Below, one piece after another: positions 24,153-33,580 of a DNA stretch of 55,940 nucleotides (position 1 is the first letter of the stretch; each line of letters begins with the position of its first letter). Source of the DNA: a virus. Lineage: Duplodnaviria > Caudoviricetes. The stretch is from the IMG/VR virus record IMGVR_UViG_3300009184_005738, positions 1-55,940 of that record. The stretch is one strand, 5' to 3'. Below the pieces are notes generated by a model, which saw only the letters and a list, made by a program, of their open reading frames with translations, was not told the origin of the DNA and made no database searches. The translations under genes were made by a program, and so were the position numbers.

Positions 24153-25730
24153 TTAGAATGATTGCATTACTGGTTTACGTTTTTTGCTGGTTGGTCCGTT
24201 GAGTAGGGTTTGTGCGTCTGCGAGTTGGGCGGAACTGGCCCAGTCCCATTCGGCTATTGCCCTTTGGTACATTTCGACGACTGTGGCACGATGTTTTACC
24301 CACATGCGGTTTTGTTGTGTTGGGATGAGTGTTTCTACATCTTCTTGGCTGATCTTGCGCTTTTCTCTGACAGAGATTTTGAAACGGGCTTCACGGATGA
24401 GGGCTTTTATTTCTGCACCCGTGAAGGTTTCCGTCATTGCAGCAAGTGTGTCTAGGTTGAAGCGTTCTGCATCTTTGTCTAAGTGTATGTTGAAGATGCT
24501 GAGACGTTCTTCGAATGATGGTAGGCCGACAAACATGATTTTGTCGAACCTGTCGGCACGGAGCATTTCTGGGCTGATGTGCCCAATCTGATTTGCTGCG
24601 GCCATGAGTAGTACGTTGTCTGGAAGTTCTTGTATGCCGGTTAGGAATTCACCGTGAACACGAGAGGTTGTACCTCCGTCGCCTTGGTAGTCTCCGGCGG
24701 AGAGGTCACGTCCGAGCTCGTCCATCCATACAACTAGTGGAGCCATTGCCCGTAGTTGTGCGAATGCTGAGCGCATACGCTTTTCTGATTCACCGATAAA
24801 CTTATCCATCATCTGGCTTACGCCAAATTTGGCAAGGTCAAGATTTAGTGTGCTGGCTGTGGCTTCGCAGATGGCTGATTTTCCAGTACCTGGCACACCA
24901 ACGAACAGTATGCGCCTTAGCGGCATGATGTCTAGTTCTGCAGCTTCTTGAGGGTTGTTCCATGTCCATACAACATTCTCGATTAGCTCTTTGGCAAGGT
25001 CGAGTCCGCCTATTTGGTCTAGGGAGATTGATGGCCGGCGGATTTCTAGGATCCCACCTTCTTTGACGCGATCCATCTTCCACTTAGCTATGTAAGCTGG
25101 GTCTACAGTCTTTTCGGTGTTGAGGCTCATTAGCGATACTTGGATGAACTCTTGCTCGGTTAGCCCTAGGCCAGCTTTTACGATTTGGCTGAGGTCTATG
25201 TTCCCTGAGTCTAGGATTGGGTCTTGCGAGAACATGGAGGCGCATAGGTGTGCGAGTTCTGCTTCGGATGGGTATCCGGGGGAGGACACAACGAAGTGCT
25301 TGATGAGTTCTTTGGGCACTTCTTCTGTGCACGACAGTAGGATAAACTGTGGGCCTATTTTGGTTTTATCGTTTTGGATTACCGCAGAGCGATATTTATT
25401 GTAGACTCCACTGAATAACCCTATAAGGTTTTCTGCTATTATATGGCCATTTTCTAAGATGATGCAAGCATTCTTGTCGATGACATACTGAATAGCAACT
25501 TCTAAATTGCTTGTTGGAACTTCCCTGAGGTCGCCTTCTTCTGCGGAACCCATCTCAATGAGAACGGTTTTCCAAGAATTGTCCCGCCAAACACTTAATC
25601 CTTCGAAAGGGTCTAGGTGGTAAACTTCATTGACACTTGTGCTGCAAATGATTTCCGTGACCCGTTCGGGCTCGACGGTGTTGACCCATATTAGCGGGGA
25701 GCCAATACGGAGGTGTTGGATGAGTTCCAT
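24153..25730 (-). CDS. AAA+ ATPase (Ycf46/Cdc48-like, degenerate N-terminal AAA domain)
   Basis: IGGLD, Walker A GVPGTGKS, pore loop KFIGESE, Walker B VWMDE, Arg finger LRADRFD, FTGAEI. Confidence 0.9.
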   Translation of the reverse strand: MELIQHLRIGSPLIWVNTVEPERVTEIICSTSVNEVYHLDPFEGLSVWRDNSWKTVLIEMGSAEEGDLREVPTSNLEVAIQYVIDKNACIILENGHIIAENLIGLFSGVYNKYRSAVIQNDKTKIGPQFILLSCTEEVPKELIKHFVVSSPGYPSEAELAHLCASMFSQDPILDSGNIDLSQIVKAGLGLTEQEFIQVSLMSLNTEKTVDPAYIAKWKMDRVKEGGILEIRRPSISLDQIGGLDLAKELIENVVWTWNNPQEAAELDIMPLRRILFVGVPGTGKSAICEATASTLNLDLAKFGVSQMMDKFIGESEKRMRSAFAQLRAMAPLVVWMDELGRDLSAGDYQGDGGTTSRVHGEFLTGIQELPDNVLLMAAANQIGHISPEMLRADRFDKIMFVGLPSFEERLSIFNIHLDKDAERFNLDTLAAMTETFTGAEIKALIREARFKISVREKRKISQEDVETLIPTQQNRMWVKHRATVVEMYQRAIAEWDWASSAQLADAQTLLNGPTSKKRKPVMQSF

Positions 25731-28028: not shown

Positions 28029-28274
28029 TCAGCCCTTTTCGCCTGCTCGACGATGGAACTCGACGTTGTCGCCGGGCTGAATGACATAAGAGTCATCCAA
28101 CTTCTCTTTACCCTTGTAGGCGTTAGCGTCTGTTGGGATTCCCCACATTGCGCTGAACTGTCCACGAAGATCTGACACACTCTTGCCTGCGTGGCTACCT
28201 GGGTTGTTGTATACGCCGTAACGGATCTGGGCAGACCCATTGCTTTCGGCGCTAGACGATGATGCTTGCTGCAT
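28029..28274 (-). CDS. ubiquitin-like beta-grasp protein (Ubl)
   Basis: 81 aa, GKSVSDLR...YVIQPGDNVEF...AGEKG with C-terminal Gly; adjacent to ThiF. Confidence 0.82.
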   Translation of the reverse strand: MQQASSSSAESNGSAQIRYGVYNNPGSHAGKSVSDLRGQFSAMWGIPTDANAYKGKEKLDDSYVIQPGDNVEFHRRAGEKG

Positions 28275-28275
28275 T

Positions 28276-29058
28276 TTAAGCTCCTTGATATACTATATCG
28301 TTAATGTTAATACTGCGATCAAAACTTTGGGCTAGACCGGCTTCCAAGTCAAAGAAATACTCAGAATTAAAAGCCGGATCTTTACCTTCAACAATGACCA
28401 TGTTGAACCGCGCTAGCAATGCTGCTGTTACGGCCATATTCGTGGCTAGAAGTTGCGTCCCTCCATCTAGTTGGGCTCTTTCTTGACACGAAAGTTCACC
28501 AGGGTTACGGTCAGGAGGATCAACATATTCCTCATGCCATACCGAAGGATGATCTACCAGCTCTACACCATCACGCTTTGCGTAGTGATAGGTGGAGCCA
28601 AAATATCTTTCATCATTACCGCCAAGGAATACATCAACATCATTAAGCTCACTAGCAGCATCAATGAGTTGCTTCCTTGCTTTGAAGTTATCTACTACCG
28701 CAAAGATTACGTCGCCCTCAGCTATTAGATCGCAAGCAGCGATCTTACCTGCAGATGGCGTTCCGTCTTCTTCCTTGTCTTCCTTACCATTTTCTGCCAC
28801 TTTGTCAACAACCCAGTAGGGCATTGGTATGATAAAGGTTTTATCAAATTGCGGTATCAATTCGTTAGCTAAAACTTCTGCTTTATTTCCAACACCATTA
28901 AAGAATTGGCGTTGTTTGTTTTTAGCTTCGAAATTATCGCCATCAACAATTAGCAGGGCCGAACCTGGCATGGTCCATTCTAGTGTCATAGCAATAGAGC
29001 GAGACAGTAAAGAACCTATACCGCCTGCCCCAACGATGACTACTCTTTTTTCTTGCAT
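28276..29058 (-). CDS. ThiF/E1-like Ubl-activating enzyme
   Basis: VVIVGAGGIG, DGDNFE.KN..RQ, AVVDNFKAR; candidate catalytic Cys in ELSCQE. Confidence 0.9.
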   Translation of the reverse strand: MQEKRVVIVGAGGIGSLLSRSIAMTLEWTMPGSALLIVDGDNFEAKNKQRQFFNGVGNKAEVLANELIPQFDKTFIIPMPYWVVDKVAENGKEDKEEDGTPSAGKIAACDLIAEGDVIFAVVDNFKARKQLIDAASELNDVDVFLGGNDERYFGSTYHYAKRDGVELVDHPSVWHEEYVDPPDRNPGELSCQERAQLDGGTQLLATNMAVTAALLARFNMVIVEGKDPAFNSEYFFDLEAGLAQSFDRSININDIVYQGA

Positions 29059-29763
29059 TTAAAATTCCTTGTAATCAATAAACAGTTTTTCGCTGTTGGT
29101 GGAAGATTTCTCAAAAGTATTTTCAACGACTAAGTGATCGTAGTCGAAGGATTCGCAAGTGATTATTTTTTCGCCTATAACACCGTGATACAGAAAATCT
29201 GCTACAGATTTCCTTATCTCAGGACATTTCTCGGTATAATAATTGACGCAATCTTTACAGAGACTGTATTGGTCGTCTTCATTGTACAAACTATCCCAAA
29301 TACCGGGAGGTACATCTGACGTATCTTCCCATGATAATGGCTTCACACAAAGGCATGCTGCCCATGTTTGGTCGCAGCAGATCATCCAAGGATCGTCATC
29401 AGAATAGAATGCGTCAATTTTTTGCACTGTTTCGGGGCTTGCCGAAGCATAGAAATCATCCCAATCTGTTTCCACAAATTTAACTCCACAGTCCTCACAG
29501 CTAGAGTCTAAATACTCTATATAGCTGATACAGTTGGGGTTAAGGCATTCAATGACTAAGGCTTCTTGCTTTTCTATCAATGTTTCATTGACGGAAATAT
29601 CAAGATTACCTAGCGGGTGGTAGCAATATGGGCATGAACTGTACTTAGCTTCTGTTTCGTCCAACTCTTGGTAACATTCATAACAGAATGCCGCAGATGT
29701 TGAACGTTCAGCTATTTTCCCGCAACACCACCTACTCCGCCTGCACCGTGGAAAAGTTCGCAT
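29059..29763 (-). CDS. Cys-rich multi-zinc-finger ORF; probably translated as a -1 frameshift extension of the JAB gene
   Basis: many CxxC pairs; weak independent start; in the -1 frame of the GGGAAAA heptamer at 29715-29721. Confidence 0.65.
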   Translation of the reverse strand: MRTFPRCRRSRWCCGKIAERSTSAAFCYECYQELDETEAKYSSCPYCYHPLGNLDISVNETLIEKQEALVIECLNPNCISYIEYLDSSCEDCGVKFVETDWDDFYASASPETVQKIDAFYSDDDPWMICCDQTWAACLCVKPLSWEDTSDVPPGIWDSLYNEDDQYSLCKDCVNYYTEKCPEIRKSVADFLYHGVIGEKIITCESFDYDHLVVENTFEKSSTNSEKLFIDYKEF

Positions 29764-30971
29764 TCTTCTTTTTCGCCGCGACGCCAGATGTAAACATCCC
29801 TAGAAACACCCATTTCTATATCGATCTCTGTAGAGTAAAGACCTTTGCTCTTTCGCTCAATACAGATATCATTTAGTGTTTCACCGGGTAGCATTATGTA
29901 ATTGTGGCAGCCGAGGCAACGTCGTTTTTCGTAGTCAGCTTTGATAAACTTAGTTAGACAAAATGGACATTCTTTTTCTTTGTCTTCTTTAAGTTCTGCA
30001 ACAATAGTATTCTTATTTGGATCTGGAAAACCTGCTGGAAGCTTTACTGAAACGCTTCCGTAGCTAGTGGAATACTTATTGCCGGAGCTTGTGCTGGGAG
30101 CATAGCTCGTAGAGCCATACCCATAACTATAGCCAGAGGGGGTAACTACTGGGGCTTTTTTGGATACCTTTTCCATCCACTGATCTACAACTGGTGAAGG
30201 TTCTGGTTTTGGAAAAGATTCAAATACTTGGCTTGGTTCCATAGTGAAAACTCCGCCAGGTGTTTGAAGCTCAATATAGTATTCTGTGGCGTTGTTATTG
30301 TGGCTTTTGCGCCAACCATAAGTTATATGAATTCCCGGAAAATCTGCTTGATCTTTATGATCAGTTCCGGAAGCAAAGGCTGACATTGCCGGATGAGAAT
30401 GTGCGGATCCTACGACATAAACATGCTCTTCTTTTTGTTGAGCAATAGATTCGTGATCATACAAGCAATCTGCGGCAGTATTTACTTGATCGGGAACTAA
30501 GATGCCCCAGCCTTCGCTTGGGTTATCTTTTTCAAGGTAGTCTGGATCGTAAGTAAGCAGGACTATAGACTCGGTGCCATGCTTAGCTTCTACTGCCCTA
30601 AAGAAATCGTCCATCATTTGAACATGGCTATAAGGGATGGCCGGAAGCTTGTAATTGGCTTCGACAGTCATTTGATCTAGGCCGAGTTCGTCAGGGTCTG
30701 CTACGGTTACAGACCTAGATATAATGGTATTAACAACCTTGAAAATTGTAGGCCTCTCTGAGGCTTTAGTCACTTTACCATCATTGTGATTATACTTCTC
30801 TACGCACATAACGTAGTAGAAACTATAACCATGAGCTTCGATGTGGCTACAAATTTTGTCTATATCACCAACAAAGCATGGTAAACCGTTAGGCAGATCA
30901 AACTGCTTAATTTGATCTAGCGGTATTAGTTCCACTATATCTTCTTCTATTACATCTTTTTCTGTGGTCAT
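29712..30971 (-). CDS. JAB/MPN+ metallo-isopeptidase with C-terminal zinc ribbon
   Basis: HGTE (Glu), GSAHSHPAMSAFASGTD (HxH...S..D); C-terminal CPFC...CLGC. Confidence 0.88.
   Translation of the reverse strand: MTTEKDVIEEDIVELIPLDQIKQFDLPNGLPCFVGDIDKICSHIEAHGYSFYYVMCVEKYNHNDGKVTKASERPTIFKVVNTIISRSVTVADPDELGLDQMTVEANYKLPAIPYSHVQMMDDFFRAVEAKHGTESIVLLTYDPDYLEKDNPSEGWGILVPDQVNTAADCLYDHESIAQQKEEHVYVVGSAHSHPAMSAFASGTDHKDQADFPGIHITYGWRKSHNNNATEYYIELQTPGGVFTMEPSQVFESFPKPEPSPVVDQWMEKVSKKAPVVTPSGYSYGYGSTSYAPSTSSGNKYSTSYGSVSVKLPAGFPDPNKNTIVAELKEDKEKECPFCLTKFIKADYEKRRCLGCHNYIMLPGETLNDICIERKSKGLYSTEIDIEMGVSRDVYIWRRGEKEECELFHGAGGVGGVAGK
29715..29721 (-). other. -1 ribosomal frameshift slippery site G-GGA-AAA
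   Basis: X XXY YYZ heptamer in frame immediately before the JAB TAG stop; -1 frame open for 218 more codons. Confidence 0.7.
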
Positions 30972-31017: not shown

Positions 31018-32355
31018 TTAAACGGACTGAGCAGTCGCTGCGTAATTAGTCGAACAACTAACGCATGAGTTATTTTCTTCTAATATCGTAAATTCGTTGC
31101 ATTTAACGCAATAACTTGCATTTGCGCAGTCAGTGCAGTGGAAGTTAAAAATTCCTTCATACTGATAATAATACAAATAGGAAAAGTGCTTTTTACTTAA
31201 ACAAGAAGCGCATGTTTCGTACTCTACTTCAAAACAACTAGTGCATACATTGCCGTCGTCGGTTTCTATGCAGTGCTCGTAACCATAAAAACCTTTACAT
31301 GCATAACAGCAAAATGACGGGCCAGCTATGGGAATTATTGGTTCGTTTTGATTTAATGGTTGTACTTCTTTATGTTTTGTATTCGTAAATGCTTTTTTGA
31401 TATTACTCAGAACGTCTTTGCCGCTTGGATTCTCCAGATCAGATCTAGAAAAAGATTGGTAAGATTTTATTGGTTCTGAATCAGTATAATAAGCTTTATA
31501 TTTTCCGTCCATAGCGGAACCAATGGTGAGGTGCTCTCCATTTTCATGGTGTTTACCTTGAGAGTCAAGTCCTTCCACCATTACCGGCAGCCAGATTGAG
31601 GGATCTAGTGTCCATTGGAATCCTTCAGTTTCGCTTTTTTGTTCCCAGTCTTCTGGGTTCCAAAGGTAAGAATATGATTGGAACTCTTCATCGTTTTCGA
31701 CGTTGTAAGTTCCTTTATATTCGCAAAATTCTTTTGTATAGCATTCGTGGTAAAACCTTGGGCCATCAGTTTCGCTCATGTTAGAGTCGTTATAGGCTTC
31801 TGTTCCACCAGATCGTTCTAAAAGGTGAGATATTTTGTGCCCTATATCTAGTTTAGATATGGAAGGTTGATTATGGTACAAGCATATCCATCCAACTCCT
31901 ACACCACCACCAGCGTGGCTTTGGCTATAGCCTTTACAGTTTAGGTTTGGAAGATTTACGTGGAATAATATTTGATTTTTGCTTGTTATTGGACTAATAC
32001 TATAGAAGTGTCTTGCACCATAAAATTCATTGTTAAGGAAATCTCCAATGACAATTCTATATGGCATTGCTAGATCGTAATGGATTGCTTCTTGATCGCC
32101 TTCGTTTTTGCCCCAAATAACCCTGTATATTTCTGGCTTGTGCTGAAATACAACCTGCATTCTATCGAAAGATTTGCGTATAGATAGAACACCAGAGCCG
32201 TCTAAGGGTAACAATCCCGTTTCGAAAAAGGATACTTCCGACAGGGACAAGAAGAAGTCGCTAAGGTCAACTTCTTCTATTTTAGACTGATTTCCGGCAT
32301 TGATTGTTAATTGAGCTTTTTGTTCATTCAGCAATAAATAAGAATCAATACTCAT
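31018..32355 (-). CDS. prokaryotic E2-like protein with C-terminal zinc-finger array, paralogue 1
   Basis: FETGLLP...DLAMPY...LFHVNLPNLN...GWICL; eight or more C-terminal CxxC motifs; in the operon with JAB, E1 and Ubl. Confidence 0.68.
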   Translation of the reverse strand: MSIDSYLLLNEQKAQLTINAGNQSKIEEVDLSDFFLSLSEVSFFETGLLPLDGSGVLSIRKSFDRMQVVFQHKPEIYRVIWGKNEGDQEAIHYDLAMPYRIVIGDFLNNEFYGARHFYSISPITSKNQILFHVNLPNLNCKGYSQSHAGGGVGVGWICLYHNQPSISKLDIGHKISHLLERSGGTEAYNDSNMSETDGPRFYHECYTKEFCEYKGTYNVENDEEFQSYSYLWNPEDWEQKSETEGFQWTLDPSIWLPVMVEGLDSQGKHHENGEHLTIGSAMDGKYKAYYTDSEPIKSYQSFSRSDLENPSGKDVLSNIKKAFTNTKHKEVQPLNQNEPIIPIAGPSFCCYACKGFYGYEHCIETDDGNVCTSCFEVEYETCASCLSKKHFSYLYYYQYEGIFNFHCTDCANASYCVKCNEFTILEENNSCVSCSTNYAATAQSV

Positions 32356-33079: not shown

Positions 33080-33580
33080 CTATAGTTTTAGTTCAGCTAA
33101 TCGTGTTTCAATTTTTTCTACACGATTTATTTTAATGTCGCTTATTTCATTCTCATTAATCCCATTTTTTTCCATAAAAGAATCATGCAATAATTCAATG
33201 GTTTCAGAGATTATATATTCGCTTCGATCATTCCACTGTACCCAGACATTTCCATACTCTGAAATAATATCTTTTGTTACAGCTTGAATTTCTCTAGCAC
33301 TGTACCCGCCCCACACCCCATATTCTTCTCGGTTCACCAAAGCTAGCCTAAGGCATTGCTTTACTGTAGGGCATGTGGTGCAAACGGTAGAAGCTACACC
33401 TAGCTCCTGGACGTTGCTCCTGGGATACATAACAGATACTTCAAGGTCCCAGCAGGAAGCCAATGGTGCCCAGCTTTTTTTGTGGGATTGAAGATATCTA
33501 GAATAGTGCTCCACCTCTTTGTATGGTGGAAGAAGATCAACTACTGGTTCTTCCTCAGTAGTTGCTTGAGTGTTCTCCAT
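33080..33580 (-). CDS. whiB: WhiB-family Fe-S transcription regulator
   Basis: C...CxxCPxxxxC...EEYGVWGG. Confidence 0.88.
   Translation of the reverse strand: MENTQATTEEEPVVDLLPPYKEVEHYSRYLQSHKKSWAPLASCWDLEVSVMYPRSNVQELGVASTVCTTCPTVKQCLRLALVNREEYGVWGGYSAREIQAVTKDIISEYGNVWVQWNDRSEYIISETIELLHDSFMEKNGINENEISDIKINRVEKIETRLAELKL

Follow-up and report, generated by a model that had tools for sequence, protein, structure and literature searches.

The JAB gene and the cysteine-rich open reading frame (ORF) that follows it in the viral record IMGVR_UViG_3300009184_005738 are very probably a single recoded gene, whose sequence points to a programmed −1 ribosomal frameshift that yields a 419-residue and a 637-residue form of one peptidase. 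The window analyzed is the entire virus record, 55,940 bases long, and the genes of the JAB region, with all window coordinates given here, lie on its minus strand. The 419-residue JAB/JAMM ORF (29712-30971) ends GGT GTT GCG GGA AAA TAG. Its last two sense codons complete a slippery heptamer, G_GGA_AAA (29715-29721), a canonical X_XXY_YYZ sequence in the JAB frame, and the zero-frame stop TAG that ends the short form (29712-29714) abuts it. Read in the −1 frame the junction becomes GGG AAA ATA GCT GAA (GKIAERSTSAAFCYECY...) and remains open to 29059; the computed −1 product has 637 residues and the zero-frame product 419, a gain of 218. The first-pass annotation had placed G-GGA-AAA in frame right before the JAB stop, had equated the −1 frame with the downstream Cys-rich ORF, and had given sizes of 419 and about 637 residues. 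The ORF and the junction sequence bear out the first two statements, and the sizes are correct on the computed translation.

It is the placement of the heptamer, not its occurrence, that is unusual, because the JAB junction alone opens a long −1 frame. The string GGGAAAA is itself common, with 12 copies on the two strands of the window, and in-frame XXXYYYZ heptamers occur 26 times within the last 30 codons of the 137 open frames of at least 80 codons in the window. The sole long −1 extension among those 26 belongs to the JAB junction, where 217 codons follow the stop; the runner-up has 83. When the survey is widened to the 658 distinct frames of at least 100 codons in the window and in loci L001-L133, a heptamer stands 0-1 codon ahead of the stop in 21. 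JAB junctions account for 11 of these; in the remaining 10 the −1 frame does not exceed 19 codons. Nor is the junction an assembly artefact: contigs of 4 runs, drawn from 4 studies, span it with no insertion or deletion (indel), two of them identical to the window at the junction and two from strains with 14 and 56 substitutions.

Related DNA loci were gathered from three collections, in which many contigs recur. The viral contigs supplied 52 loci, with the JAB and zinc-domain frames split in 4 and fused in 46 (at least 542 codons); one further locus is cut by a contig end, and one encodes a distant JAB without a zinc-domain ORF. The metagenome contigs supplied 80 (8 split, 2 of which repeat viral contigs; 71 fused, again at least 542 codons; 1 contig-end cut), and the genome contigs 8 (3 split, 1 fused by the same measure, 4 distant). 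The split and fused counts omit the distant JABs L053 and L140-L143, which are followed at once by E1 and lack a zinc-domain ORF (by tblastn for L053, by frames and translations for L140-L143), and the contig-end cuts L009 and L111. A second scan of the viral contigs with the zinc domain gave no new loci beyond two known contigs. In-frame fusions and conservation of the junction in homologous phage loci were the checks that the first-pass annotation had named for its proposal, and both are found. An in-frame canonical heptamer lies 0-1 codon before the JAB stop in 13 of the 14 distinct split loci with DNA, the window included. It is G_GGA_AAA in ten (the window, L054, L002, L003, L004, L005, L057, L058, L059, L065) and A_AAA_AAA, at the same place, in L110, L137, and L139. 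The stop follows 0 or 1 codon past the heptamer in all 13, with 192-270 open codons in the −1 frame. Across these loci the JABs are between 96% and 35% identical to that of the window, several of them at 35-39%.

Comparison of the junctions argues that the heptamer is conserved beyond any need of the protein sequence. The codon ahead of it varies (GCG, CTG, TCG, or ATG, for Ala, Leu, Ser, or Met), yet its third base is always G, and GCG makes up 3% of the Ala codons in the window. GGA and AAA are retained though rare in these genes; in L065, at 59% G+C, GGA accounts for 11% of Gly codons and AAA for 6% of Lys codons. The summed log10 probability of the codon choice at the heptamer is −18.5, with 9 loci treated as independent. 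The bases after the heptamer and stop in distant split loci are often TAGGAGG, TAGGTGG, or TAAGGTGG, read in the −1 frame as Leu/Val-Gly-Gly or similar; stretches of the TAGGAGG type lie at L004:3743-3760, L059:2686-2700, L005:3704-3720, L065:1427-1440, and L057:1520-1530.

The −1 frame seems to be coding from the heptamer onward. A zinc ribbon of the form [FYW]-C-x-x-C...C-P-x-C begins 8-30 codons past the heptamer in 13 of 13 loci. No ATG, GTG, or TTG occurs in the open −1 frame ahead of this first ribbon in 8 of them, and none within 70 codons in L005 and L065; in those 8 loci the ribbon would thus be translated only by ribosomes coming from JAB. The 181 linker codons between heptamer and ribbon contain 0 stops, for which base composition gives P ~5e-5, a value inflated in its assumption of independence by the kin pairs window/L054 and L110/L137. 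Two stand-alone calls that represent 50%-identity clusters and have upstream starts, P0133 and P0134, read ...KGKISS... and ...AGKIEGG... some 15-20 residues before the first CxxC. Because these residues match GGG AAA read in the −1 frame, both are likely to be further heptamer-bearing loci.

Protein relatives tell a similar story of two architectures. JAB has 440 database relatives, and of the best 120 of these, which were used for counts of length and C-terminus, 67 have at least 500 residues and 53 are short. The C-terminus of the 53 short ones is GK or GKx in 36, KK(x) in 7, and PK(x) in 3. That of the long homologues is made up of the same Cys-rich domain. P0044 (655 residues) is colinear with the computed frameshift product, its residues 8-655 aligning with residues 7-634 at 31% identity with both zinc ribbons included, and P0062, P0064, and P0101 also align across the junction. 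Since GK is missing from the aligned junction of the fused P0044, it is not a requirement at the protein level. In a FastTree phylogeny of the first 300-310 residues (121 rows; support values are local only, and several branches are long), 65 fused forms make up one clade with support of 100, and P0044 and P0062 are placed among the split forms. The tree needs at least 3 changes between split and fused states, and this placement would imply an old split junction from which fusions have arisen on more than one occasion.

Downstream of the heptamer a 3′ stem-loop is predicted at 29646-29714, with an inner hairpin and an outer 5-bp helix; its conserved 8-bp stem pairs 29699-29706 with 29658-29665 and begins 8 nucleotides (nt) past the heptamer. 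Folding was assessed on the 90 nt past the heptamer against 200 shuffles in 10 loci. The window gives −22.6 kcal/mol (z −2.39), with 7 of the 200 shuffles equally good, and the z scores of seven other loci are −4.79, −4.58, −5.15, −3.24, −2.51, −1.78, and −1.70; in 4 loci 0 of the 200 shuffles are as stable. Within the window clade an 8-11-bp stem common to 5 sequences begins 5-8 nt past the heptamer. In the alignment of these sequences 93.3% of cells are paired, a share that drops to 20-40% once the partner is slid; compensatory changes occur in 3 of 9 stem pairs, and the stem arms are also coding. Covariation in the 3′ stem is suggestive on this evidence. Rfam has no match at the junction.

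From this arrangement we infer the slip, its rate, and a role for the stem. Most ribosomes would read GGA-AAA, reach the TAG, and release the 419-residue JAMM peptidase. Some, probably detained by the stem-loop, would pause while tRNA-Gly and tRNA-Lys occupy G_GGA_AAA; both tRNAs would then re-pair one base back on GGG_AAA, and the stop would be bypassed. Ribosomes that slipped would append the 218-residue multi-zinc domain to give a 637-residue JAB-zinc-domain enzyme. If the appended domain is a targeting module, the slip rate would set the share of peptidase that carries it.

It is improbable that the two ORFs are ordinary genes, with the Cys-rich protein produced only by independent initiation (at ATG 29763, a downstream TTG, or a near-cognate codon, perhaps coupled to JAB termination) and the heptamer incidental. 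Public gene callers do treat the Cys-rich ORF as separate, and one split locus, L136, has a separate gene with a strong Shine-Dalgarno (SD) sequence and a GTG start. The window, L054, and P0002 also offer an in-frame ATG inside JAB, 14 codons ahead of the heptamer (29761-29763 in the window), which is the start that gene callers use. This ATG, for which the first-pass annotation saw no clear ribosome-binding site, is indeed not preceded by an AGGA/GGAG-type motif within 25 nt, unlike its four neighbours (the 445-residue gene, JAB, E1, and the ubiquitin-like protein (Ubl)), all of which have AAGGA or GGAG in the same span. Its only counterpart among the DNA loci is in L054, and the protein P0002 also starts there; it is missing in most relatives, namely L002, L003, L004, L005, L057, L065, L110, and L137. 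It is probably not the real start. Public calls of the Cys-rich ORF begin at scattered sites, from query residue 1 to 114, with no start conserved among them, and in the 8 loci described above no canonical start can include the conserved first ribbon. Independent initiation would also leave the rare-codon heptamer, the stop-free linkers, and the in-frame fusions unexplained.

Transcriptional slippage, in which the polymerase would add or drop a base in the A run so that some mRNAs join both ORFs, has very little probability. Slippage is a known route to two products, for example in Thermus dnaX (Atkins et al. 2016, PMC5009743, in the text available), and L110, L137, and L139 do have seven consecutive A residues at the junction. 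The exact X_XXY_YYZ frame is nevertheless conserved, for which slippage has no need, and the contigs of the 4 DNA runs show no indel heterogeneity at the site, although contigs can mask rare variants. Ten of the 13 loci, moreover, carry only GGG plus AAAA, runs that are too short for efficient polymerase slippage. Still less credible is gene decay, in which a frameshift mutation would have disrupted an ancestral JAB-zinc-domain fusion and left its downstream part silent. Most relatives are fused, so that a break would be the simplest single event. Against decay stand the retention of the split form, its downstream frame still open, in 13 diverged loci, a break that always falls at a slippery heptamer, the 9 Cys columns that are invariant in a 30-sequence alignment of the domain, and a domain that folds confidently in prediction.

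Other observations weigh against a programmed frameshift, or against parts of the mechanism proposed for it. A possible start lies ahead of the first CxxC in 5 of the 13 loci (the window, L054, L058, L059, and L139), which leaves room for independent initiation there, and 7 of the 53 short homologues end in none of GK, KK, or PK. L059 (z −0.63) and L110 (z −0.36) have only a weak 3′ fold, and L057 and L004 a modest one. The count of compensated pairs is reached by 13 of 500 shuffles, and the covariation comes from only 5 sequences. The first-pass annotation had pointed to SD-like GGAG and AGGTGG just upstream of the heptamer; these do stand 17-8 nt upstream of it in the window, but comparable motifs are found in only some loci and are absent in L004, L059, and L005. 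With no consistent counterpart in relatives, the upstream motifs were dropped as a candidate conserved stimulator. Finally, the slip rate may be low, because the heptamers here end in AAA: in E. coli, AAG-ending heptamers are highly shift-prone, and A_AAA_AAG far surpasses A_AAA_AAA in this respect (Atkins et al. 2016, PMC5009743, in the text available).

The remaining split locus, 1 of the 14, is the plainest exception to the frameshift pattern. In L136, a contig from a metagenome-assembled genome (MAG) labelled Saccharibacteria, JAB ends in the non-slippery TCC AAG AAA TAG, and the zinc-domain ORF occupies the +1 frame and has a start of its own, AAGGAG-N7-GTG (GTG 3723). This separate zinc-domain gene (L136:3710-4250) is without the first zinc ribbon, and it would mean that the zinc domain is able to function as a protein in its own right. 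To judge by the sequences, a true independent start has little in common with the other junctions of this family. Protein-level KK endings were considered as a sign of A_AAA_AAA and rejected, L136 ending in SKK without a slippery site.

The short form has the features of a JAMM metallopeptidase. Its motif, E134...H191-x-H193-x7-S201-x2-D204, is intact, and E134, H191, H193, S201, and D204 are invariant across a 39-sequence alignment. The match to Pfam PF14464 (E=3.4e-5, 24.1 bits) falls slightly below the cut-off of 25, and precomputed matches place PF14464 in many of the homologues; the family profile also matches the Rpn11-like chains 6fjv and 6fju (6fjv E=1.8e-4). The C-terminus of JAB has a zinc ribbon of its own, CPFC...CLGC. 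This ribbon (29712-29970) and the first ribbon of the −1 domain (29620-29721) align to one region, about residues 337-410, of fused homologues of about 550 residues, and those homologues are without the first two ribbons of the zinc domain. The alignments suggest that a zinc-ribbon module was duplicated internally in the lineage of the window. Neither JAB nor the zinc domain has a match in GenBank phage records by tblastn. Scans of the viral contigs with single proteins gave nothing, and alignment-based queries were needed to find the relatives.

The −1 coding region (29059-29721) runs from GGG AAA of the heptamer to the stop TAA at 29059-29061 and specifies a Cys-rich multi-zinc domain of 218 residues, in which two zinc ribbons are followed by CC-x6-C-x-C, CxxC, C, and C. 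Its AlphaFold2 model has a mean predicted local distance difference test score (pLDDT) of 80.1, and a Foldseek comparison of the model with the PDB returned no fold match at E<0.4. The domain belongs to no Pfam, PHROG, or PADLOC family, and its Atlas scores are at most 0.85. An identity as an NZF/RanBP2-type zinc finger was set aside, the matches covering 28-31 residues only and being too weak. Between the window and L002/L003, identity is 86-88% for E1 and 85-88% for Ubl, 59-60% for JAB, and 37-38% for the zinc domain. Because it evolves so much faster than E1 and Ubl, the domain is less likely to be a catalytic part than a module for targeting or for binding a partner.

The genes next to JAB indicate a ubiquitin-like cassette. 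Directly downstream is an E1-like gene of the ThiF family (28276-29058; PF00899 E=1.5e-10, 41.1 bits against a cut-off of 28.1), which has weak PADLOC E1-E2 matches (best E=8.2e-5) and no match in a PDB sequence search. It is followed by the gene for Ubl (28029-28274), an 81-residue protein that ends ...HRRAGEKG. The AlphaFold2 model of Ubl (pLDDT 81.5) matches ubiquitin, ISG15, and SUMO best among PDB structures, with a probability of 1.00 and a template modelling (TM) score of ~0.6. GEKG is terminal in most of 45 distinct Ubl homologues. Several loci have 2-3 residues past GEKG (SL, NI, SK, or LA), L142 has 12, and in L141 Ubl is apparently fused to a 426-residue ORF. The extended ends look like precursors that need C-terminal processing, and they fit a processing role for JAB by analogy with that described for Bil.

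Upstream of JAB lies a conserved gene for a protein of 445 residues with a Cys-rich C-terminal tail (31018-32355). It belongs to no Pfam, PADLOC, or PHROG family, and its Atlas matches are only unnamed viral hypothetical clusters. It occupies the position where an E2 would be expected; that it is one is only a guess. Among 133 loci examined for synteny, JAB is present in 133, E1 in 128, and the 445-residue gene in 120. PADLOC assigns 0 families to JAB, the zinc domain, Ubl, and the 445-residue protein, and its Bil models are not matched; on that result a classification of the cassette as Bil was rejected, and it may be said only to work like such a cassette. The neighbourhood of JAB has no tail genes: the neighbours are the 445-residue gene, E1, Ubl, a WhiB-like regulator (33080-33580; several PHROGs, E ~1e-13), and an AAA-type ATPase of 525 residues (24153-25730; phrog_8638, E=8.9e-66). 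A tail-chaperone pair of the G/GT kind, whose small ORFs are set between the major tail gene and that for the tape measure, was accordingly discarded. The WhiB-like regulator nearby hints at an actinobacterial host. A related 210-kb contig (L139) belongs to a MAG labelled Iamiaceae.

The proposed organization recalls several known cases of recoding. As in lambda gpG/gpGT and other tailed-phage tail chaperones, a minor long product would comprise the whole short product plus a C-terminal domain, and the position of the shift is conserved across very diverged phages. The G/GT ratio in lambda is 30:1, and in E. coli the heptamer G_GGA_AAG shifts very readily (Atkins et al. 2016, PMC5009743, in the text available). 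Unlike gpG/gpGT, the gene here specifies a JAMM peptidase in an E1/Ubl cassette and has no part in tail assembly, and many of its relatives are constitutive fusions. There is a likeness also to the tau and gamma forms of bacterial dnaX, two isoforms of one enzyme subunit that differ in a C-terminal domain, where a 3′ stem-loop acts as stimulator. In some dnaX candidates the zero-frame stop directly follows the shift site and the long tau form needs the shift (Atkins et al. 2016, PMC5009743, same text), and it is these variants that the present junction resembles, with a stop at the site and a long form that would be reached by shifting. E. coli dnaX differs in using A_AAA_AAG with an upstream SD sequence, which has no conserved equivalent here, and in a shift that makes the shorter product. 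In the OrfA/OrfAB pair of IS3-family elements, the first ORF ends in an A-rich heptamer on which ribosomes slip by −1, and two domains are thereby joined in the long, active protein; the products there are mobile-element transposases, and the short product is a regulator.

In gene content the cassette recalls Bil and related bacterial operons for ubiquitin-like conjugation, which encode an E1, an E2, a JAB deubiquitinase, and a Ubl: it too combines a ThiF-family E1, a JAMM peptidase, and a Gly-ending beta-grasp protein. The short extension past Gly in some Ubl homologues resembles the Ubl precursors that the Bil deubiquitinase processes (Chambers et al. preprint, 10.1101/2023.09.26.559546, in the text available). 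The present cassette differs from Bil in its setting on large phage contigs and not in a bacterial defence island, in the lack of a recognisable E2 among its genes, and in a JAB that has zinc ribbons and, probably, a frameshift-appended zinc domain. The word "Frameshift" has 0 occurrences in the available text of that preprint (10.1101/2023.09.26.559546), and no report of frameshifting or recoding in a JAB or Ubl system was found in the literature accessible to the search, supplements and subscription journals lying outside its scope. What is described here would extend a known mechanism, the −1 frameshift of phages, to a gene family new to it, one that belongs to an E1/JAB/Ubl cassette of phages.

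A broader picture can be offered tentatively, and seems possible though a little short of probable: that large freshwater phages carry a full Ubl tagging cassette whose JAMM enzyme is made in two forms through an ancient, conserved −1 frameshift, which would be the first recoding linked to a Ubl pathway in prokaryotes or viruses, and that the quickly evolving zinc domain serves as a targeting module, the slip rate balancing free against targeted peptidase. It is far less likely that the ratio of the two forms is tuned by the tRNA modification state of the host or by the cassette itself, an idea that arises because the slip depends on tRNA-Lys reading AAA. Thiolation of tRNA-Lys uses E1-like/Ubl sulfur relays in some organisms. 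Frameshifting at lambda G/GT responds to tRNA modification and to host sulfur metabolism (PMC3296357, in the text available).

For the study of recoding, the JAB junction would represent a deeply conserved phage frameshift outside the tail and capsid genes. The family supplies natural controls, with two heptamers that substitute for each other at one site, fusions that have arisen more than once, and one lineage that has a separate start. For annotation, the Cys-rich ORF carries arbitrary truncated starts in public data, and the correct product would be the 637-residue fusion. The presence of JAB in all 133 loci examined, and of E1 as well in 128, indicates that a phage-borne E1/JAB/Ubl cassette is widespread. 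The dose of the zinc domain in these phages appears to be set at translation, and this may provide a handle for finding what they tag and untag.

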